Source: Pseudomonadota bacterium (GTDB lineage: Archaea > Thermoplasmatota > SW-10-69-26 > JACQPN01 > JAJPHT01). Taken from it: 16,064 nt of DNA. Made by a program: the position numbers and the translations under genes. The notes beneath the pieces were generated by a model that ran no database searches, had not been told where the DNA came from, and was given only the letters and a program-made list of their open reading frames with translations. The stretch lies in the NCBI GenBank assembly GCA_021325135.1, contig JAJPHT010000038.1, positions 1 through 16,064 on the forward strand, in the 5' to 3' direction. Below, piece after piece: positions 1,634 through 10,930 of this stretch; position 1 is the stretch's first letter, and each line of letters begins with the position of its first letter.

Positions 1634-2869
1634 TCAGCCAGTGTAGGGGCCGGGAGCGATGTCGTTGTTGTTGCACGGCGAGACGCTGTCCTCGCAGTAG
1701 TACGGCGCCGTGCTGCCCTCGACGTCGTTCACCACGAAGTTGCGGGTGAGCGGGTCGTGGGGCGTCGCGAAGCCGTAGTAGAGGTCCACGTTGGCCGTCG
1801 CGTGGCACTGGTAGCCCTGGTAGCTGCCGTCCGGGCTCGCGTGGGGGTTGCCGTCGGGGCACGCCGCGGAGCCGCCGTGGTTGCCCTTGCCGTCGTACGT
1901 CGTCACCGGGTACGGGCTGGCCGGGTTGTAGTCGTGGCTGTTGCCCTCCAGGTTGTCGTCGCCGCTGGGGCAGGGCCACTCGCTGGTGTTGGGGTCGCAG
2001 CCCGAGACGTCCGCCGCGCGGTCCGCGGAGCCCGCGTTGTGGTCCTTGGGGGTCCCGCGCTGCGTGAGGTCGTCCAGGAAGGCGAAGAGCACCGCGTTGT
2101 ACTGGATCGCGTTGCCGCCCGTGGTGGGGTAGTCGCGGCTGCCGCCGGTGCCGGGCGCGCAGAGCGGGGTGTGGGTGAAGCGGCCCTCGCCGGTGCCGGT
2201 GTCGTTGTAGACCGGGTCCTCGCCGGTGGCGTCCACGACGGGGAGGACGTCCACGCCGCCGCACGGGCTGTCCGTGTAGGGCGCGCAGTTGCTCGACCCG
2301 TCGTCCTCCAGGCCCATGTTGGCCTGGTTGTTGAGGATGCCGACGCCCCAGATCGTCTCGCCGGCCACGACGCCCTTGTCGATGGTCCACGAGTTGTCGT
2401 TGGGGTCGGTCACGAAGTAGGACTCGACGTAGTTGGGCGCCGTGAAGGCCACCAGCGCCGCGTCGTTGCCGCCCAAGCTGGCGGGCCGCGGGTCCGCGTC
2501 GCCCTGGTTGACCATGAGCACCGCGCCGTTGCACGGGTAGCGGAAGGTGGCGCAGCCGTTGGAGGCGTCGGCGCCGTTGTTGCACTGGACGTCCGTGCTG
2601 GGGTCCACGAGGTACTGGTCGTTGAACCACAGGACGCCCGGGAAGCGGAACACCGTCTCGGACGCGGAGTACTCGCGCACGAGCACGGCCACCGCGGCCG
2701 CGAACTTCGTCTCGTTGGTCCGGGTGACGTTGGCCGCCTGGATGACGGTGAAGACCGTGTGGCCCTCCACCACCTGCTCTGGCGTCGGTGCCGCGACGTA
2801 GATGGTGGCCGCGGCGCCCACGGCGGGGGCGGCCAGCATGATCGCGAGCGCGATGATCCACTTTCGCAT
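1634..2869 (-). CDS. Secreted acidic Gly/Pro/Asp/Asn-rich protein with 12 Cys, function unknown
   Basis: N-terminal signal peptide (MRKWIIALAIMLAAPAVGAAA), strong GC3 codon bias, GAGG-containing sequence just upstream of the ATG, no C-terminal TM anchor. Confidence 0.85.
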   Translation of the reverse strand: MRKWIIALAIMLAAPAVGAAATIYVAAPTPEQVVEGHTVFTVIQAANVTRTNETKFAAAVAVLVREYSASETVFRFPGVLWFNDQYLVDPSTDVQCNNGADASNGCATFRYPCNGAVLMVNQGDADPRPASLGGNDAALVAFTAPNYVESYFVTDPNDNSWTIDKGVVAGETIWGVGILNNQANMGLEDDGSSNCAPYTDSPCGGVDVLPVVDATGEDPVYNDTGTGEGRFTHTPLCAPGTGGSRDYPTTGGNAIQYNAVLFAFLDDLTQRGTPKDHNAGSADRAADVSGCDPNTSEWPCPSGDDNLEGNSHDYNPASPYPVTTYDGKGNHGGSAACPDGNPHASPDGSYQGYQCHATANVDLYYGFATPHDPLTRNFVVNDVEGSTAPYYCEDSVSPCNNNDIAPGPYTG

Positions 2870-3021
2870 GATGCCTCAACCTCTCCAGGCCTGAGCCTGT
2901 GCGCCCGCGAAGTCCCAGTGGGAGACTATCAAGGGTCGGCTGTCACTCCCCTAGGTGAACAACCTGCAGCGACCTGGCTGCGCTCTCTAGAGACTATCTG
3001 TGAATTCCCTGGGGGGAGCGC

Positions 3022-3453
3022 ATGACGGAAAGGACGCGTCGCGGGGGCATGGACCCGTTCGACAGGACGAGGCTTCCCGGGCACGTCATATTAGAAGATC
3101 GGCGCCCGGACGCGCTCCGCGCCCGCGAACCGCGCTTCAAACGCCCGCAGCGCCATGCGGAGGCCGTGGTGGCCGTCGACGAGCTGGGAAGCCCTGAGGT
3201 CTCCGTCGCGATCCGGATGCTCGAGGGCGAGGCGCTGAACATGCGCCGCTTCATCGCCGCCTGCCAATCCTCCCCCGCCCGCGCGCGCAAGGCCCTCTCC
3301 CGCCTGGAGGAGCTTGGGCTCGTCCGCGTCGAGCGCCTCGACCAGGGCGCGACGCAGGTGTCGCGCATCTCGCTCTCCCCCCTGGGCAAGGAGGTCGCGA
3401 CGCACTTCGCCGCCGCGAGCGGGGCGATGGAGAAGGCGAAGAGGAAGAAGTGA
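3022..3453 (+). CDS. MarR-like winged-helix DNA-binding protein
   Basis: ARKALSRLEELGLVRVER...ISLSPLGKEVA is a typical wHTH recognition helix and wing with an L-[ST]-x-x-G signature. Start uncertain (3022 or 3049). Confidence 0.7.
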   Translation: MTERTRRGGMDPFDRTRLPGHVILEDRRPDALRAREPRFKRPQRHAEAVVAVDELGSPEVSVAIRMLEGEALNMRRFIAACQSSPARARKALSRLEELGLVRVERLDQGATQVSRISLSPLGKEVATHFAAASGAMEKAKRKK

Positions 3454-3457
3454 GGAC

Positions 3458-3480
3458 GATATCAGCAGGGCTGATATCAG
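3458..3480. repeat. Inverted repeat between the convergent wHTH gene and the tRNA 3' end
   Basis: GATATCAGC-AGG-GCTGATATC (9-bp perfect stem, 3458-3478), overlapping the palindrome CTGATATCAG (3471-3480). Confidence 0.6.
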
Positions 3481-3483
3481 AAG

Positions 3484-3568
3484 TGCGCAGATACGGATTT
3501 GAACCGTAGAACACCTAAGTGAATAGACTCTGAATCTATCGCCGTTGGCCAGGCTTGGCTATCTGCGC
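3484..3568 (-). tRNA. tRNA-Leu (anticodon CAG), CCA not encoded
   Basis: The reverse complement folds as a cloverleaf: acceptor GCGCAGA/TCTGCGC with discriminator A, D arm GCC..GGC, anticodon arm ATAGA-TT-CAG-AG-TCTAT, long variable arm CAC-TTAG-GTG, T arm TACGG-TTCAAAT-CCGTA. Confidence 0.97.
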
Positions 3569-3625
3569 GGATGCGGCGGACCCGGCCGCAAGGCCAGGCC
3601 TCGGAGCACGGCAAGCTGCGCTCCA

Positions 3626-3640
3626 TTCATAAACGTTCTC
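3626..3640 (-). promoter_or_regulatory. Putative BRE/TATA box of the tRNA-Leu gene
   Basis: Minus strand GAGAACG-TTTATGAA is the only AT-rich box upstream of the tRNA, about 60 nt from the mature 5' end. Confidence 0.45.
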
Positions 3641-3647
3641 ACGGGCT
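3639..3647 (+). repeat. Target-site duplication, left copy (TCACGGGCT)
   Basis: An identical 9-mer lies immediately outside both TIRs (3639-3647 and 7061-7069). Confidence 0.93.
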
Positions 3648-3702
3648 GGTGCTGTTCCATAGAGGGGGGACGGACTTCTCCCGTTTCATTCAGGGGGATG
3701 GC
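3648..3702 (+). repeat. Left terminal inverted repeat (55 bp)
   Basis: GGTGCTGTTCCATAGAGGGGGGACGGACTTCTCCCGTTTCATTCAGGGGGATGGC matches the reverse complement of 7006-7060 with 3 mismatches (positions 14, 33, 45). Confidence 0.95.
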
Positions 3703-4916
3703 TGTGCGTCGTCGCGCACGACTCGCGCCTTCCGGATGACGGCCGCCCATCGTGACTCCGAGGGGGCCGCGCGGACGCCGACGCCCGCCGCTTCGGCAGG
3801 CGTGCGCCCGCCCAGCGCCATGTGGGGTCGGACGAGGTTGTAGAACGCGGCCTGCCCCTCCGTGAGCGGACCACTCGGCTTCTTGAGGCCGCGCGTCACC
3901 TTCTGCCGCTGCCGAACGGTCCCGTTCAGGCGCTCGACCTTGTTGTTGTGCGGAAACTTCTGCGGCTTGGAAATGTGAGTCTCGCGCGTGTGCTTCGCAC
4001 CCCGAAGCTGCGAGCGGACGGCGTGAACGTAGGCCGGCAGCCCGTCCGTCACAATCTCGTCGGGCTTCTTGCCCGCGAGCACCGCCGCGTCGCGCATGAC
4101 GCGCACGGCGCCCTTGTCGTTGCGCTGCGCCGTCACGCGGGACACGAGCAAGAAGCGCGTGTCGGCGTCCATGACGTGCCACAGGTATTCCAGCTTCCCC
4201 GAGAACTTCGTGAACACCTCGTCCGCGTGCCACTTGTCCCCGACCCACGGCTCCAGCGTGGCCGCGTACTCGTTGATGAGCGTGACGTAGCGCATGATCC
4301 ACCGATAGACGGTCGCGTGCGCCACGCGCAGCCCGAAGAACTGGTTGAGCGTGTCCACGATTTGGCGGAGGCTGTTCCCCTTGAAGTGGAGGTCCAACGC
4401 GAGGCAGACGACCTTCGGCTCGCCCTTGAGGCGCGCGAAGCCCTCGTCGGGAACGAACTTGCGACCGCACGCGGGCGCGCGGCAGCGGTAAGATTGCTTC
4501 CCGCCCTTGGCGCCGTTCTTGACGACCTCCGCGCTCCCGCAATGCTTGCAAGTCACGAACTCGGGCAGCGCATCGTCGGGAAGGATCGCGCTGAAGCCGC
4601 GCGTCGCCTTGACCTTGCGCGGCTTCTTGGGCGCCATGCCCGGAAGCGTAACCTGGAGGCTGCGGTGGGCCGCCTCCGTGAACTTGGACGCGTGGATGTG
4701 CTTGCACTCCGCGCCCCGCTTCGCATGGTCCGGGCAGGTGCAGGTCCACCGCTCGGCCATGTCGTTGTGGCGGAAGCTCGTGACCGTGTAGCGGACGCCG
4801 GGCTGCGACTGGCTCGGGACGTGCCACTTGTTCTTCCCTTCCTGCTCGATGGCGTCACCCTTCGCCACGATGGCAAGACCGCGGACGGCGCGAGGATCGG
4901 AAGCCGATTCAACCAA
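3690..4916 (-). CDS. DDE transposase (IS6/IS240-like catalytic domain) with N-terminal SWIM zinc finger and zinc ribbon
   Basis: SWIM motif WTCTCPDH...CKH; zinc ribbon CKHCGS..VVKNG...YRC..CGRKF; DDE motifs WHADEVF..YLWHVMD, IVTDGLPAY and NNKVERLNGTVR; C-terminal YNLVRPHMAL.GRTPAEAAG. TTG start; the stop codon lies inside the left TIR. Confidence 0.93.
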   Translation of the reverse strand: MVESASDPRAVRGLAIVAKGDAIEQEGKNKWHVPSQSQPGVRYTVTSFRHNDMAERWTCTCPDHAKRGAECKHIHASKFTEAAHRSLQVTLPGMAPKKPRKVKATRGFSAILPDDALPEFVTCKHCGSAEVVKNGAKGGKQSYRCRAPACGRKFVPDEGFARLKGEPKVVCLALDLHFKGNSLRQIVDTLNQFFGLRVAHATVYRWIMRYVTLINEYAATLEPWVGDKWHADEVFTKFSGKLEYLWHVMDADTRFLLVSRVTAQRNDKGAVRVMRDAAVLAGKKPDEIVTDGLPAYVHAVRSQLRGAKHTRETHISKPQKFPHNNKVERLNGTVRQRQKVTRGLKKPSGPLTEGQAAFYNLVRPHMALGGRTPAEAAGVGVRAAPSESRWAAVIRKARVVRDDAQPSP

Positions 4917-4923
4917 GCGGACC

Positions 4924-5010
4924 CACTATGGAACCATAGTGATATGGAACCATATAGCCTTCCGAGCAACCCGAAAATGGTTCCATACCTTCAAGGCCGA
5001 ATGGAACCAT
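4924..5010. promoter_or_regulatory. Divergent promoter region with four ATGGAACCAT operator-like boxes
   Basis: ATGGAACCAT at 4928-4937, 4944-4953 and 5001-5010, and its reverse complement ATGGTTCCAT at 4977-4986. The first extends to the near-palindrome CACTATGG-AA-CCATAGTG. Confidence 0.75.
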
Positions 5011-5021
5011 GCCGGCTTCTC

Positions 5022-5195
5022 GTGAAGCTCCGCAAGCAATACGCCTACACAGCCAACGGCAAGGACTACCACAAGTGGGCCGTGAACCTGCCCCCCGAGC
5101 ATGTCGAGGCGTTGGGATGGGAGCACGGACAGGAGCTTGAGGCGGTCGTTCGGAAGGAGGGTATCCTTCTGCGACCGGCAAAAGCCGATGACTAA
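5022..5195 (+). CDS. AbrB/MazE/SpoVT-like small DNA-binding protein
   Basis: KWAVNLPPEHVEALGWEHGQELEAVVRKEGILLRP matches the swapped-hairpin pattern (V.LP......LGW..G.EL......I.L.P). Start is GTG 5022 or ATG 5001. Confidence 0.8.
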   Translation: MKLRKQYAYTANGKDYHKWAVNLPPEHVEALGWEHGQELEAVVRKEGILLRPAKADD

Positions 5196-5392
5196 AGGGT
5201 GACCTGTGGCGGGCAGGCGACAGCCGGCGGGGGCGAGCGCCGGGTTCAGCACACTCTACCCTGAATCGTACAGGGGAAGCTTTATCCTGGATTCGCACTC
5301 CACCCTCTTGTTCCAAGGCCCCCGTTTCCGCGATACAAACCTCTAAGCGGGCTTGCTGACATGTGGAGTAACGGGGGTACGAGGCGGTGCTG

Positions 5393-5647
5393 ATGCAAAG
5401 TCGAGGATTCTCATTCTCGGCTCTCGACGCTGAGAGCAAGTTGAGGGTGTTGGAGTCTATCGGGTATGGTACGGACGGCACGTTCGTTACCCGCCACGGC
5501 AAACCCTACCGCGATCAATACACGCACCAGCCAATCCGACTGACGGAAGTTATCGTTCTCCCCGGAAGCACGGTGGTTCTGAGCGACAACCCGATCAGCC
5601 TCGCGATGTACCTTGAGGACCACCCGGACGTTCAGATCGAATACTGA
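5393..5647 (+). CDS. Small hypothetical cargo protein (about 84 aa)
   Basis: Protein-like ORF (LESIGYGTDG...VLPGSTVVLSDNPISLAMYLED) with GAGG upstream, ending 8 nt before the next ORF. Alternative GTG start at 5387. Confidence 0.75.
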   Translation: MQSRGFSFSALDAESKLRVLESIGYGTDGTFVTRHGKPYRDQYTHQPIRLTEVIVLPGSTVVLSDNPISLAMYLEDHPDVQIEY

Positions 5648-5655
5648 ACTCGGGG

Positions 5656-6369
5656 GTGGCCGCCGTCATTCATGAACTGCCCCCAGAGCTTCTGAAACCC
5701 CTCCTGGAGGCAACTGCGGGAGCCGGGCTCAAGCTCACCGTCGAGCAGGCCAAGAAAGTCGGCGAGGCCATCAACAATCACTCCTTGGCTGGGATGGGCT
5801 CTCGCGACCACTGGGCGTTGGCGAAGGAAGCGGCGAAAGAACTGGCGAAGGCTCCCGAGTACCTGTCCTACAAGCCCTTCATCACCTCAAAGAATCAAGG
5901 AGCGATCATTCGCTTCGGCATGGTGCTCAGAAGGCACGCCAAGGACGAACCGGTCGTCACCGAGATCAAGGACGCACTGAAGGCCCTCGACCCGGACAGA
6001 GGTGTGGTCCTCGCTCAAGCTTCCCAGGCGGAACTGCTCCCGGTCATCATCCAAGAGTACACGCGGGGCGCTACCGACGACGGAACGTACCGTCGGAACG
6101 TCCAGCGGGCCTTGCAGCACATCGAGGAATATGTCTACTTCGTCTACGACGGGATCGACGAAGCGACTGCCGAGAACAGCATAGCCTCGGCACTCCATCA
6201 GCGACGCCCCCCGGTCTATTGCATCGCTGGGAGTGGACAAGCGGTGGACTCCACGCGGGCCGTTGCGAACGGTGTCGCCGCCAAGGCGCGGAAACTGTAC
6301 GTCATGGAATGGCGCCAGGCCGAAGGTCGAGTGAGCGCCATCTTCCGGCCAGCCGAGTACTTCGGCTGA
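5656..6369 (+). CDS. Hypothetical cargo protein (237 aa), helical N-terminal part and alpha/beta C-terminal part
   Basis: Long ORF with a globular amino acid composition, co-oriented with and close to 5393-5647. No recognised motif. Confidence 0.75.
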   Translation: MAAVIHELPPELLKPLLEATAGAGLKLTVEQAKKVGEAINNHSLAGMGSRDHWALAKEAAKELAKAPEYLSYKPFITSKNQGAIIRFGMVLRRHAKDEPVVTEIKDALKALDPDRGVVLAQASQAELLPVIIQEYTRGATDDGTYRRNVQRALQHIEEYVYFVYDGIDEATAENSIASALHQRRPPVYCIAGSGQAVDSTRAVANGVAAKARKLYVMEWRQAEGRVSAIFRPAEYFG

Positions 6370-6379
6370 AGCCCGCTCG

Positions 6380-6571
6380 CTACTTCTTCGGCTTCTTCTC
6401 GGCCTCTTCCTCGCGCAGCTTGGCCCAGGCGAACTCGGCGGCGTGTGTGAGGCTGGCCCAGCGCTTCCCGGGGCCAGTCTGCTCCAGGACTCAGGCGAGG
6501 ATTTGGGGGTCGGGGCTGATGCTGACCTTGCGCTTCTTGCCGTGGTCAGGCGCGATGACGTTTCGCCCCAT
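6380..6571 (-). pseudogene. Ribbon-helix-helix (CopG/Arc/MetJ-like) protein interrupted by one in-frame TGA
   Basis: Reading through the TGA at 6491-6493 gives MGRNVIAPDHGKKRKVSISPDPQILA*VLEQTGPGKRWASLTHAAEFAWAKLREEEAEKKPKK: a beta strand (KVSIS), a helix, a GKR.AS turn and a second helix. Confidence 0.7.
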
Positions 6572-6606
6572 CTTGCCCTTCAATGCGACAGTAGGGCTTA
6601 AGCGGA

Positions 6607-6993
6607 ATGGTTTCAGTTGTCGTACCGAAGACGCTTCCATGCGCCTTTGGAGAGACCCCAGATGCCCCGACGCCCTGCCTCCACCAAGACGCCTCCACCC
6701 CGCCGCCAAGCCAGCTTTCCCTCCTGAACGAGGACCGCTGCTTCACCGTCCTGGTCGGCGTCCGCGACACTCCCGAGCCCTTCGGAATGCTCACCTTCAC
6801 CCGGGCCAGTGGCCTGACCGGCCCCATGGCCAGGCGAGCCCGAGACACCCTGGAAGCCTGCGGCCTGCTCCAAGTCGAACGGCCAAGGAAGCGCGGCGCA
6901 GTTCGAGGCCTCCAGATGCGCCTCACTCCCGCGGGCCGGCGAGCCGCAGACAACCTCTTCGCCCTTGACCTCGACCTCCGCAGTCCCCCGTGA
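6607..6993 (+). CDS. MarR-like winged-helix protein (transposon cargo)
   Basis: ARRARDTLEACGLLQVER...LQMRLTPAGRRAA wHTH signature, similar to 3022-3453. Start uncertain. Confidence 0.65.
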   Translation: MVSVVVPKTLPCAFGETPDAPTPCLHQDASTPPPSQLSLLNEDRCFTVLVGVRDTPEPFGMLTFTRASGLTGPMARRARDTLEACGLLQVERPRKRGAVRGLQMRLTPAGRRAADNLFALDLDLRSPP

Positions 6994-7005
6994 GTGCGAA
7001 GCGGG

Positions 7006-7060
7006 GCCATCCCCCCGAATGAAACGGAAGAAGTCCGTCCCCCCTCAATGGAACAGCACC
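7006..7060 (-). repeat. Right terminal inverted repeat (55 bp)
   Basis: Reverse complement reads GGTGCTGTTCCATTGAGGGGGGACGGACTTCTTCCGTTTCATTCGGGGGGATGGC. Confidence 0.95.
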
Positions 7061-7069
7061 TCACGGGCT
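7061..7069 (+). repeat. Target-site duplication, right copy (TCACGGGCT)
   Basis: Identical to 3639-3647. Confidence 0.93.
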
Positions 7070-7075
7070 GAAGTC

Positions 7076-7104
7076 CCGGCGGCGGCACCGAAGCGCGCCG
7101 CCGG
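7076..7104 (-). terminator. GC hairpin downstream of the small secreted protein gene
   Basis: 9-bp stem CCGGCGGCG/CGCCGCCGG (7076-7084/7096-7104) about 27 nt after the stop at 7131. Confidence 0.45.
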
Positions 7105-7130
7105 ATGGGGGTGTTGTTGCTGTGGTCTGA

Positions 7131-7376
7131 TCACGCGAGCTGGCTGTCGGCGGGGATCACGGTGCCGTCCTCGAGGACCGTGGGCTCCGTCTGGAGGCCG
7201 GGGAGGGTGTTGCTCTCCTGCCACACGCTGGCGGCGGGGCCGGTCTCGTCGACGACGAGGTAGATGTCGCCGCCGGCGGCGCCGGTCGCATCGGGGATGG
7301 TGATGGGGTCGAGGGCCACGGCCAGGCTCGTGGAGAGCAGCAGGGCGAGGGCTCCGAGGGCAAACATGGTCTTCAT
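7131..7376 (-). CDS. Small secreted protein with VWQESN-x3-GLQ motif (paralog 1)
   Basis: Signal peptide MKTMFALGALALLLSTSLAVA; shares D[IL]Y...VWQESN...GLQ...DSQL with 7568-7825. Confidence 0.85.
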   Translation of the reverse strand: MKTMFALGALALLLSTSLAVALDPITIPDATGAAGGDIYLVVDETGPAASVWQESNTLPGLQTEPTVLEDGTVIPADSQLA

Positions 7377-7567
7377 GGTGTAGACGCTCCGTTGCCGTTC
7401 CGCCTCCCGGGCGGTTGGGCGAGCAGGAGCACGCCCGTGAGCCGTGTTAACGCTTGTAGTCCACGAGTGATTCTGAAGGCCCAGCGTACACGCTCTCAGG
7501 ACGATGGGGTTGAAGGGAAAGCGCCGGGCGATCGCGCTCGGGGCGCGATCTGTAGAGGAAAAGGGGC

Positions 7568-7825
7568 TCAGATGAGCTGCGAGTCGGGGCCGTAGAGGAA
7601 GTTGCCCTGGTCGTCGTAGGTAGCGTCCTCCTGGAGGCCGGCGTGGCCGTTGCTCTCCTGCCAGACGGTCAGGTCGTCGTTGTCGCCGTGGTTGACGAAG
7701 GGCACGGGCACGTAGAGGTCGCTCTGGCCCTGCGCGGTGGACAGGGGGACGGTGGTGTGCGCGAGGGCGCCGCCCACGGCGAAGGTGGCCAGCGCGGCGA
7801 CGGCGAGCGCGAAAACGGGCTTCAT
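7568..7825 (-). CDS. Small secreted protein with VWQESN-x3-GLQ motif (paralog 2)
   Basis: This is the C-terminal 85 aa of track ORF 7568..10237: MKPVFALAVAALATFAVGGALA signal peptide, then DLY...VWQESNGHAGLQ...DSQLI. Confidence 0.85.
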   Translation of the reverse strand: MKPVFALAVAALATFAVGGALAHTTVPLSTAQGQSDLYVPVPFVNHGDNDDLTVWQESNGHAGLQEDATYDDQGNFLYGPDSQLI

Positions 7826-7978
7826 GTCGGGTTGCTCTCCTGCGTCTCCGCCTCCCGGGCAGAAAGCGCGGGGGGACATCCTCCGGTGACCGTATGAAGC
7901 GGAGCCTGTCACCGGGCCGACGACGCGGAACCTTGAATCCGGTCGCGGGGCGGGCGAACGCTGAAGCGCAGGAAGCCC

Positions 7979-10651
7979 GTGCGCGCGCCTGAGAGCATGA
8001 AGCCGGGCGACCTCGTCGAGTTCAAGGCGGGCCTCTTCGGGGTGAAGCCGCCCGACAACCTGGGCATCTACCTGGAGCGCGTGAAGCGCAAGGGGCAGTT
8101 CTTCGTCGTGCTCTTCACGGTGCGCGGGAAGCAGGAGGTCAAGCCCGAGAACGTGACCTCGAAGCGCCTCGACGCCCGCGTGCCGCCCGATGAGCTGGAA
8201 GGGGGCGACCTCGCGCCGCGCCTCAAGCAGCTCATCGCGGCCGTCTCCAAGGGCAAGGTCAAGGAGGAGCTCTCCGCCGAGGGCGCCACGGACCGCGCGC
8301 TCTGGCTCAAGGTCAAGGACCGCGAGGGCGCGCCCGCCACGCCCGACGATCTCGCGGCCGCGTTCTTCGAGAGCAAAGCGCCTTCCCGAAGCCAGGTGGG
8401 CGAGATTCGCAAGATCCTGGAGTCGTGCCGCGAGCCGGGCGTCGGCTACTTCGAGCGCCTCCCCGGGCGCGAGGAGCTTTGGCGCCCGCTGACGCGCGCG
8501 GAGCACTCGTCCTTCCACAAGGAGAAGGATGGCCTCCAGAAGCTGCGCAACAAGCTCGTCCTCGTGGAGGAGGTCGAGGACGAGGAGACGGGCTTCCTGC
8601 GCACGGTCTACAAGGGCGTGCCCGTCGCGGAGGCCAACCTCGACGAGGAGGACCGCGCGCGGCTGGCCTTCGTGGGCGAGGCCATGCGCGACTTCGTGCT
8701 GCACGACCGCTTCACCGGCGCCCACACCCTGGGCGTCTCGGGCAAGCACACGCTGGACGGCTTCACGCTCTTCCCGTACCTCAAGTTCCTGGCGCTGGAC
8801 TGGACGGGCGCCGAGCGCGTGAGCGTCAGCAGCACGTTCGTGGAGATGCTCCTGGACGTGGGCCTCGTGGGCTACGACGACGCCGTGACGCTGGTCGCGC
8901 AGAGGAAGGTGCTCGCGTTCCCCAACTTCGGCTGGGACGTGCCCCCCGACGTGCTGCGCGCCGCGGAGCGCGCTCCCCCCGAGATATCGCCCGGCGCGCA
9001 TCGGCGCGACCTGCGCCACCAGCGCATCTTCACCATCGATCCGCCCGACGCGCGCGACCATGACGACGCGGTGGGCGTGGAGGAGCACGGCGACGGCACG
9101 TGGACGCTGTGGGTCCACATCGCGGACGTGAGCCACTACGTGGAGCGCGACACGACGCTGGACCACGAGGCGAGGAAACGCGCGACCAGCGTGTACCTGC
9201 CCAGCGGCGTGCTGCCCATGCTGCCCCCGCGCCTCTCCAACGACCTCTGCTCGCTGGAGCCGCAGAAGGACCGCTTCGCGCTCACCGCGGCCATCACCTA
9301 CGACATGGAGGGCCGCCTGCTGCGCGAGATGGCGTGCGAGAGCGTCATCCGCGTGACCGCCAACGTGCCCTACGGCGAGGTGCTGAAGGCCATCGAGCAG
9401 GGGGACCACGCCGTCGAGGCGGAGCACTACGACCCCCGGGGCTTCGAGTTCCGCCGCATGCGCGAGCTTGCCGACCTCATCGACCGCCACCGGAGGGGGC
9501 TTGCCATCGAGACGTCCGAGCGCCGCGTGAAGCTCACGCCGGACAACGTGGAGCACGTCGAGAAGATGGGCACGCCCGCCACGCGCCTCATCGAGACGTT
9601 CATGGTCGCGGCCAACGAGGCCGTGGCGCGCATCCTCACCCGCGAGGGCGTGCCCGTGCTCTACCGCTGCCATCCGCTGCCTGACCGGCCGGGCGTCGAC
9701 CGCTTCAACGGCCAGTGCGAGACCATGGAGGTGCCCATCCGCATCGAGCTTCCCAAGAAGGAGGAGAAGAAGGCGCCCGATGCCGAGGTGACGCTCTTGG
9801 ACCAGCTCAAGAAGGGCGGCAAGCTCAACCTCTTCGGGGGCGGCATCGGCATGTCGGGGCTCGACGAGCCGGAGCCCGAGCCGCAGGAGGAGCAGCCGCC
9901 GAAGCCCCTCGTGCAAGGCCTCGCGCAGCTCTCGCCCGAGGAGCAGGACGCATGGCTCTCCCCCTTCCGCGCCGCCCTGGAGCAGGTGGGCGGCATCGAG
10001 GACGACGCGCTCAAGGCGCTCGTCTACCTGAAGGTGCTCTCCACCATGGGCCGCGCGTTCTACACGCCCGCGAACCTGGGGCACTTCGGCCTGGGCTCCA
10101 CCTGCTACTGCCACTTCACGAGCCCCATCCGCCGCTACCCCGACCTTGTCGTCCACCGGCAGCTGCGCTGGCTCCTCCGCGGCCGGCAGGGCCCCATGCC
10201 CCACGACAACGCGTCGCTGGACATCCTCGCGGCCCACACGTCGGAGCAGGGCAGCGCGGCGGAGTCCCTGGAGCGCGGCGTCGTGGACAGCGCCCTCGTG
10301 TTCGCCTCGCGCGACCCGCGCTGGGAGGGCCCGCAGCGCGCGCTCGTCAACGGCATGACGCGCGGCGGCGTCTTCATGTCGCTGGAGGGCGGCCTGGAGG
10401 CGCGCGTCGCCATGAGCGACATCCCCGGGGGCCCCTACAGCATCGACGAGAACGACTCGCGCCTCTTCGTGGGCGAGGCCGAGCGCGCGGAGATGACGGC
10501 CGAGATCACGGCCAAGAACTGGCGCGAGTTCGTCGACCCCGCCAAGGACGAGGTCCAGCTGGTGCGGCTGCGCCTCGGGGACCGCGCCAACGTGCAGATT
10601 AGCGCGCGCGACTACGCCGAGGGGCGCGTGGCGGCGAAGCTCCTGGAATGA
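7979..10651 (+). CDS. RNB-domain 3'-5' exoribonuclease (RNase II/RNase R family)
   Basis: Catalytic motif IFTIDPPDARDHDDAV, plus WVHIADVSHYV, RATSVYLP..VLPMLP, LIETFMVAANEAVA and HFTSPIRRYPDLVVHRQL; C-terminal S1-like domain. The start may be ATG 7997. Confidence 0.95.
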   Translation: MRAPESMKPGDLVEFKAGLFGVKPPDNLGIYLERVKRKGQFFVVLFTVRGKQEVKPENVTSKRLDARVPPDELEGGDLAPRLKQLIAAVSKGKVKEELSAEGATDRALWLKVKDREGAPATPDDLAAAFFESKAPSRSQVGEIRKILESCREPGVGYFERLPGREELWRPLTRAEHSSFHKEKDGLQKLRNKLVLVEEVEDEETGFLRTVYKGVPVAEANLDEEDRARLAFVGEAMRDFVLHDRFTGAHTLGVSGKHTLDGFTLFPYLKFLALDWTGAERVSVSSTFVEMLLDVGLVGYDDAVTLVAQRKVLAFPNFGWDVPPDVLRAAERAPPEISPGAHRRDLRHQRIFTIDPPDARDHDDAVGVEEHGDGTWTLWVHIADVSHYVERDTTLDHEARKRATSVYLPSGVLPMLPPRLSNDLCSLEPQKDRFALTAAITYDMEGRLLREMACESVIRVTANVPYGEVLKAIEQGDHAVEAEHYDPRGFEFRRMRELADLIDRHRRGLAIETSERRVKLTPDNVEHVEKMGTPATRLIETFMVAANEAVARILTREGVPVLYRCHPLPDRPGVDRFNGQCETMEVPIRIELPKKEEKKAPDAEVTLLDQLKKGGKLNLFGGGIGMSGLDEPEPEPQEEQPPKPLVQGLAQLSPEEQDAWLSPFRAALEQVGGIEDDALKALVYLKVLSTMGRAFYTPANLGHFGLGSTCYCHFTSPIRRYPDLVVHRQLRWLLRGRQGPMPHDNASLDILAAHTSEQGSAAESLERGVVDSALVFASRDPRWEGPQRALVNGMTRGGVFMSLEGGLEARVAMSDIPGGPYSIDENDSRLFVGEAERAEMTAEITAKNWREFVDPAKDEVQLVRLRLGDRANVQISARDYAEGRVAAKLLE

Positions 10652-10930
10652 TCACATCGGCTTGCCGCAGGAGCCGCAGAAGCGGGCCTCCTCGTCGCTC
10701 AGGCCGCGGCACGAGGCGCAGCGCACCTTGACGGCGGGGCCCATGACGGCGCGCAGGTAGGGAGCGAAGAGGAGCAGCGCGAAGACCACGACGAGCGCGA
10801 TCGTGACGAGCCCGACGTGGTCCGCCGAGCCTCCCAGCCAGAACGCGACGATCACGAAGAACGCCGCCGTGCCCCAGGGGAACCTGTCCCAGGTCGACTC
10901 GCCCTCGTCAGACCCCACCCATTTGATCAT
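10652..10930 (-). CDS. Two-TM membrane protein with C-terminal zinc ribbon
   Basis: Starts MIKWVG; two hydrophobic segments, then VKVRCASCRGLSDEEARFCGSCGKPM (CxxC...CxxC). Confidence 0.8.
   Translation of the reverse strand: MIKWVGSDEGESTWDRFPWGTAAFFVIVAFWLGGSADHVGLVTIALVVVFALLLFAPYLRAVMGPAVKVRCASCRGLSDEEARFCGSCGKPM

Follow-up and report, generated by a model that had tools for sequence, protein, structure and literature searches.

The window analysed here is an entire contig (C13) of 16,064 bp, belonging to a metagenome-assembled genome (MAG) of 3.77 Mb that is 94% complete. At positions 3648-7060 it harbors a genuine and structurally complete transposon of 3413 bp in which one accessory gene is broken. 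The element is bounded by terminal inverted repeats (TIRs) at 3648-3711 (left, + strand) and 6997-7060 (right, - strand), and a perfect 9-bp target site duplication (TSD), TCACGGGCT, abuts both ends (left copy 3639-3647, right copy 7061-7069). It encodes a single transposase (3690-4916, - strand) and, in addition, four intact open reading frames (ORFs) and a disrupted fifth. Outside the left end lie a TATA-like box and a tRNA-Leu(CAG) gene. The boundaries, the TIR match and the perfect TCACGGGCT duplication claimed in an earlier note on this DNA (the original prediction) were all re-read at these positions. We consider it very probable that the element is a complete transporter insertion sequence (IS) with one transposase, that it belongs to an archaeal lineage related to the IS6 family, and that members of this lineage insert non-randomly upstream of TATA-like boxes.

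The left TIR consists of the tip GGTGCTGTTCCAT followed by two subterminal G-rich repeats. Its core of 55 bp (3648-3702) matches the right end (7006-7060) at 52 of 55 positions, and when extended to 64 bp (to 3711 and 6997) the match is 57/64. The tip reads GGTGCTG in this copy and GGTNCTG in 11 of 13 complete relatives, positions 1-2 being GG and position 7 being G. IS6 tips are described by the same bases (PMC6807381). The original prediction had set the ends apart from the classical IS6 inverted repeats, which start with GG; this distinction has to be dropped, since the present ends are IS6-like: they, too, open with GG and, as in IS26, carry a G at position 7. The bases beside the TSD match as well, giving an 11-nt sequence, CTCACGGGCTG, that overlaps the terminal G/C of this copy. 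The length of 9 bp is ambiguous in this copy alone because the reading requires GG tips; it is secured by four independent relatives, members of the same clade, that have exact 9-bp duplications.

The transposase is a protein of 408 amino acids composed of a SWIM-like N-terminal domain, a zinc ribbon, an HTH (helix-turn-helix) and a DDE catalytic domain, an architecture supported by Pfam and NCBIfam matches, alignment, structure prediction and Foldseek. The catalytic region matches Pfam DDE_Tnp_IS240 (1.8e-18, 67.4 bits, cut-off 27). Among transposase models the NCBIfam IS6 model (transpos_IS6) scores best, at 108.3 bits and below its equivalog cut-off of 125; the whole-protein models for IS1 (53 bits, below the cut-off of 100) and IS481 (52 bits) are weaker, and the ISC774 model gives 20 bits. 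The N-terminal Zn domain shared by IS1 and IS1595 (NF050000) is recognized above its cut-off (41.7 vs 28, 1.2e-10). Alignment with 30 homologues showed that the catalytic triad D232, D291 and E328 is conserved together with R335, seven residues past the glutamate, and that the zinc ribbon cysteines C123, C126, C145 and C150 as well as the SWIM-type signature C59-x-C61-x9-C71-x-H73 are invariant or nearly so. The AlphaFold (AF2) model has an N-terminal beta/alpha domain with a predicted local distance difference test (pLDDT) score of about 90, followed by the zinc ribbon, the HTH and an RNase-H-like core, and Foldseek searches with this model returned DDE transposases and retroviral integrases. 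The claim of a single, intact IS6-like DDE transposase is therefore borne out by an IS240-type core with a conserved triad. Of the proposed SWIM/zinc-ribbon extension, the ribbon stands by its cysteines; the CxC..CxH signature is also conserved, but the SWIM family PF04434, precomputed for many homologues, does not reach E<0.1 with this transposase. The domain is here called SWIM-like.

IS6 family members generate 8-bp repeats, archaeal members measure about 700-800 bp, and zinc-finger extensions are reported only for Clostridia members in ISfinder, in clades h/VII and i/VIII (PMC6807381, PMC7986276). The element described here differs from IS6/IS26 in the sense of ISfinder by its 9-bp TSD, although eight distant relatives have 8 bp, and by its size and gene content: it spans 3413 bp and has five additional ORFs, whereas those elements measure about 0.7-0.9 kb, at most 1.76 kb, and encode only a transposase. 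Among plasmid records, the named proteins closest to the transposase belong to the IS6 family (C. botulinum) and to the ISCpe7 family (C. perfringens) and are 27-32% identical over the zinc ribbon, HTH and DDE regions or over HTH and DDE. The long zinc-finger IS6 elements of Clostridia (ISCpe7; clades h/VII and i/VIII) share with the present element the IS240-type DDE domain, the basic residue at E+7, the HTH, the N-terminal zinc ribbon, and the GG (positions 1-2) and G (position 7) of the TIR tips. Unlike here, the C. botulinum protein of the clade h type has two zinc ribbons and lacks the SWIM motif. The Clostridia elements have TIRs of about 14-20 bp, 8-bp TSDs, a length of 1.2-1.8 kb and no extra genes, whereas the present element has two-part TIRs of 55-64 bp, a 9-bp TSD, 3.4 kb and five extra genes; the archaeal host and the fixed insertion upstream of TATA-like boxes further set it apart.

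Archaeal IS6 elements in ISfinder (clades a-d or Ai-Aiv, including ISH14, ISH15, ISH29, ISC774 and ISPfu) resemble the present element in host, DDE core and longer TIRs that often start with GG, but they carry only a transposase of about 220-250 amino acids for which no zinc or SWIM extension is described. The sole IS6 member reported to bear a passenger gene is ISDsp3 (PMC7986276). Like the present element, this transporter IS has one transposase and a passenger within one pair of TIRs, but it is bacterial, 1.46 kb long and carries one passenger, whereas in the lineage described here cargo is the rule (13 of 13 complete elements, with lengths of 2.2-7.2 kb). The ISfinder-based reviews contain no archaeal IS6 member of the present architecture (PMC6807381, PMC7986276). 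Searches of full-text literature returned nothing relevant on SWIM domains with IS6 in archaea, nor on targeting of TATA boxes by archaeal transposons. The element thus represents an archaeal IS6-related lineage that is undescribed in the searchable literature.

Complete relatives, designated here by their loci, were found by an indexed scan anchored on exact duplications and inverted tips. An alignment-based TIR search recovered none in L021, L022 and L049-L052, and a scan for 8-bp duplications only missed the 9-bp elements. In four relatives GGTNCTGT tips are accompanied by exact 9-bp TSDs, namely L021 (transposase 72% identical, 2427 bp, TSD GGGTCGGAG), L049 (70%, 3606 bp, GGGGCGCCG), L052 (54%, 4464 bp, CGGCCTCCG) and L081 (46%, 5275 bp, GCCGGCAAG). 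Eight remoter elements with 34-41% transposase identity have 8-bp TSDs (L084, L086, two in L087, L093, L097, L085 and L041). In a maximum-likelihood tree of 14 rows, some with over-extended N-termini, the five elements with 9-bp TSDs group together (support 98/98) and those with 8-bp TSDs all fall outside, which indicates that the 9-bp stagger is a property of a subclade and not a coincidence of a single copy. The genes carried within the TIRs vary among close relatives. Taken with the extra Zn domains, the long TIRs, the 9-bp TSD and the element's own regulator, these comparisons uphold the proposal of a non-composite cargo carrier of a distinct IS6-related subgroup. To this the present analysis adds a subclade with a 9-bp stagger, a division of the genes into core and cargo, and the TATA-anchored insertion before a tRNA gene.

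The family is not uncommon: among 401 species genomes sampled within the phylum, 26 contain it, and kin of the host genome group as one archaeal phylum. A large protein collection contained at least 413 matches, the homologues being labelled as IS6 family transposase and originating from Thermoplasmatota and other archaeal MAGs. A search with the homologue alignment gave nine metagenome loci and five genome loci, mostly distant, and nothing in viral contigs; a search with the single transposase protein gave nothing in genome contigs.

The gene downstream of the target is tRNA-Leu(CAG) (3483-3568, - strand), a call that rests on ARAGORN, on its fold (cloverleaf -28.5 kcal/mol) and on its conservation, the gene being 82-99% identical across four congeners; Rfam cmscan did not report a tRNA-Leu at 3483-3568, either at the gathering or at an E-value threshold. 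Toward the tRNA gene the order is element, TSD, the spacer GAACG, the box TTTATGAA (3626-3633, - strand), 57 nt and tRNA-Leu(CAG). The box lies 5 nt from the TSD, is the sole AT-rich octamer upstream of the tRNA in that stretch and may form its promoter. The same distance of 5 nt between the TSD and a TTTAWATA-like box is found in L021 (spacer CACCC, box TTCAAATA), L052 (CATGG, CTTATATA, 125 bp before rpl15e), L081 (TCTAG, TTTAAATA), L084 (CAAGG, TTTATATA), L086 (CAACT, TTTAAATA), L087 (AAATA, TTTATATA) and L085 (AAAAT, TTTATAAT). In L049 the spacer is CAAGCG (6-7 nt, box CTTTATAG), and the spacing in L093 is compatible at 4-7 nt; in all, at least nine of 12 relatives share this layout. At the five GC-rich loci all five elements have an AT-rich octamer so placed, as compared to 0.5-1.4% of background positions when an octamer with at least seven A/T is required 3-8 nt from a 9-mer. 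As judged from sequence, insertion thus takes place at a set position a short way upstream of the TATA-like box of a gene, the boxes being putative promoters.

Two further properties bear on target choice. The spacing is identical in the 8-bp and 9-bp clades, from which it appears that the cut on the promoter side is anchored. Furthermore, elements are stacked. In L081 (G078:C34, 2385-10853) two elements (2385-5569 and 5579-10853), each flanked by GCCGGCAAG, lie before the TTTAAATA box and the tip of a further element abuts on the left, so that three ends share GCCGGCAAG; in L087 ends likewise share TGGTATTT, and L084, L097 and L041 adjoin the tip of another element. The orientation toward the promoter is variable (about 7 to 4). 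Both the constant distance and the stacks point to recognition of the TATA box and B recognition element (BRE) region, or of a promoter bent by TBP and TFB.

A mechanism that would fit these data starts with binding of the transposase to the two-part ends, i.e. the GGTNCTGT tip and the subterminal G-rich repeats. Joining of these ends to the target would follow, with a stagger of 9 bp. The edge of the duplication that faces the promoter would come to lie upstream of a TATA-like box at a distance of about 5 nt, the box being here the putative promoter of tRNA-Leu(CAG). IS6/IS26 elements transpose replicatively, by copy-in via cointegrates, and leave directly repeated copies in pseudo-compound transposons; the present element may follow this route or may move by cut-and-paste. 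Because insertion takes place upstream of the box, the downstream gene would keep its BRE and TATA box, and the element would park at a harmless site that stays open to later insertions. The transposase may recognize a promoter that is bent or occupied by TBP/TFB, or else the sequence of the TATA box. With more doubt than confidence, we suggest that it docks on the TBP/TFB-bound, bent promoter, possibly via the SWIM-like domain, and makes its cut upstream of the TATA box at a set distance. An analogy is provided by Ty3 and other eukaryotic retroelements that are targeted to RNA polymerase III genes by retrotransposon integrases. There, too, insertion occurs at a fixed distance from a site bound by a TBP/TFIIB-like factor near tRNA or housekeeping genes, in a safe haven where the gene stays intact; a contact of the present transposase with TBP or TFB is hypothetical.

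Several observations weigh against a complete transposon with a preference for promoter-upstream sites. The TSD-to-box spacing is not clear in two of 12 relatives (L097 and L041), and the promoter status of the TATA-like boxes is itself a deduction. The accessory gene for a ribbon-helix-helix (RHH)-like protein is broken by a TGG-to-TGA change, with a stop where five homologues have Trp. The original prediction proposed to look with the TIR for further copies or short derivatives, but no other TIR copy occurs in the own genome, where the complete element is single and no cointegrate or direct-repeat pair was seen, and a 22-nt TIR pattern (21 specified bases) had no match in JGI metagenome contigs. 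There is no sign of current activity in these data. An empty site in relatives, a check also proposed there, was looked for and not found: exact look-ups with the transposase and an 81-aa protein encoded beside the element showed that all three assemblies holding the locus are occupied, and DNA searches of four congeners revealed only the tRNA as conserved. Finally, selection against insertions within genes could enrich sites upstream of promoters, although not a fixed spacing of 5 nt.

The latter point leads to the most serious alternative, an ordinary IS6-type transporter IS that makes no target choice and whose insertions elsewhere were purged by selection. On this account surviving insertions are expected to be intergenic, and the sample of complete elements is small (about 13, several from related genomes). 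We nevertheless hold it unlikely, as the spacing is exactly 5 nt in at least eight of 12 elements from hosts with 30-69% GC, as it is equal in the 8-bp and 9-bp clades, with independent elements stacking on an identical target, and as the chance background is only 0.5-1.4% per locus.

Considerably less probable is a mosaic origin, in which a short IS composed of the transposase and its AbrB-like partner took up neighbouring DNA via a distant or surrogate end and the 3.4-kb unit moved once. The composition of the genes would suit such an event, with a GC content at third codon positions (GC3) of 0.95-0.97 for host genes, 0.90 for the transposase and 0.71-0.76 for the remaining genes of the element, and so would the different cargo of close relatives. 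Moreover, the sequence GGTGCTGATGCAAAG at 5386-5400, at the start of the gene for an 86-aa protein, resembles both the IS26 end GGCACTGTTGCAAA and the element's own tip. However, this sequence is in direct, not inverted, orientation and cannot pair with the left inverted repeat, which rules it out as an internal element end; its likeness to the ends may be due to chance. Both outer TIRs have the full two-part structure (52/55), the TSD flanks the entire 3.4-kb unit, and extra genes lie within the TIRs of 13 of 13 complete elements. The remaining possibility, a tRNA-associated integrative element with the DDE enzyme acting as a site-specific tRNA-gene integrase, is scarcely credible: the element does lie 71 nt from the 5' end of tRNA-Leu and the transposase gene of L022 directly follows tRNA-Ser, but relatives also precede protein-coding genes (e.g. 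rpl15e in L052), the insertion is upstream of the tRNA instead of in its 3' half, and TIRs with a TSD are present instead of an att duplication of tRNA sequence.

The preferred reading, a cargo-carrying archaeal IS6 relative with promoter-anchored insertion, joins an IS6 catalytic core, extra zinc domains and long two-part ends in one archaeal cargo carrier that appears to park at a set position before promoters without breaking them. To our knowledge, classical IS6 elements are small, carry no cargo and have not been described as choosing promoters. With this lineage, DNA integration anchored to promoters would become directly testable in archaea, and it could account for the build-up of arrays of mobile elements at housekeeping genes. 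If docking on TBP/TFB is true, it would be a prokaryotic counterpart of the transcription factor targeting of the Ty3 type and would explain the stacks before housekeeping genes. The clean change from an 8-bp to a 9-bp stagger within one transposase lineage should be useful for finding what sets stagger length. The results also bear on whether archaeal and long 'IS6' elements merit a separate family, a question raised by Harmer and Hall (PMC6807381).

The original prediction described five passenger ORFs with one transposase. Five extra ORFs are indeed present, but one (AbrB-like) belongs to the core and two form an accessory pair, of which one member is broken. The AbrB/MazE-like protein of 64 amino acids (5001-5195, + strand; Pfam MazE_antitoxin 1.3e-5) is encoded divergently from the transposase gene. 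The divergent control region (4927-5011) contains four ATGGAACCAT/ATGGTTCCAT boxes, the core of which is repeated in the TIR tip. Among related elements, more than 15 independent ones have an AbrB-like gene adjoining the transposase gene (24 matches by tblastn, of which several fall in overlapping loci), and the association persists down to about 35% transposase identity. The AbrB-like gene is therefore part of the transposition module, in accordance with the regulator of its own that had been predicted for the element. The protein probably represses transposase expression via the four ATGGAACCAT boxes.

The accessory pair consists of the disrupted RHH-like gene (6380-6571, - strand; in-frame TGA) and the gene for a protein of 128 amino acids (6607-6993, + strand), which by eye resembles a winged helix-turn-helix (wHTH) protein and had no match to any family in Pfam, NCBIfam or PHROGs. 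The RHH gene recurs in L052 (74%), L051 and L022, a homologue of the 128-aa protein is also found in L051, and in the congener G002 a decayed element (L105, identical to L010) has homologues of both side by side. The RHH and wHTH-like genes are thus a recurrent accessory pair.

Only the pair of genes for 86-aa (5387-5647, + strand) and 237-aa proteins (5656-6369, + strand) is idiosyncratic cargo, with no homologue in any related element. Outside these transposons it is a conserved two-gene module: L103 (2441-3385) encodes homologues with 41% and 28% identity, respectively, the first also of 86 amino acids, at an identical spacing of 9 nt, and in L101 and L102 a homologue of the 237-aa protein comes after an IS3-type transposase. 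For the 237-aa protein, 33 distant homologues were found among 1.84 billion representatives, while a word-based search gave no homologue and Pfam no match. Its AF2 model (pLDDT 87) shows a helical N-terminal domain, and the best Foldseek match is a weak one to Alba (E 3e-3), suggesting a C-terminal Alba/IF3-C-like fold. Comparison of the cargo with PHROGs and PADLOC gave nothing, and a PDB sequence search returned only zinc-finger matches, which were judged spurious.

As to the age of the insertion, the perfect TSD agrees with the fairly recent event proposed in the original prediction, but the three assemblies with this locus all have the identical insertion, and the proposal is weakly supported. 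The nearest species (G002) yields no precise empty site: its tRNA-Leu and RNB genes are separated by about 85 bp, and both the element and about 0.9 kb of adjoining DNA (window 7070-7950) are missing.

Remnants and variants of the lineage were also noticed. The same genome contains a decayed second element at about 5660-7266 of L104 (G000:C27:24000-38000), where the C-terminal part of a transposase is 47% identical over residues 285-408. A TGA interrupts this match, and the element also has a homologue of the RHH gene. The G002 element mentioned above (L105, G002:C17, 2544-3466) is internally deleted and retains the tip GGTACTGTCCCGG, a 3' remnant of the transposase gene and the genes of the RHH/128-aa pair. 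In L022 (908-2216) a transposase gene with 71% identity starts 1 nt past a predicted tRNA-Ser, with no upstream AbrB-like gene or recognizable tip; this may be a rearranged copy. In the window, the segment between the element and the RNB gene (7070-7950) harbors two small genes encoding proteins of 81 amino acids, with a signal-peptide-like N-terminus, and 85 amino acids. Matches resembling paralogues of the 81-aa protein occur at other places in G001 and G002.

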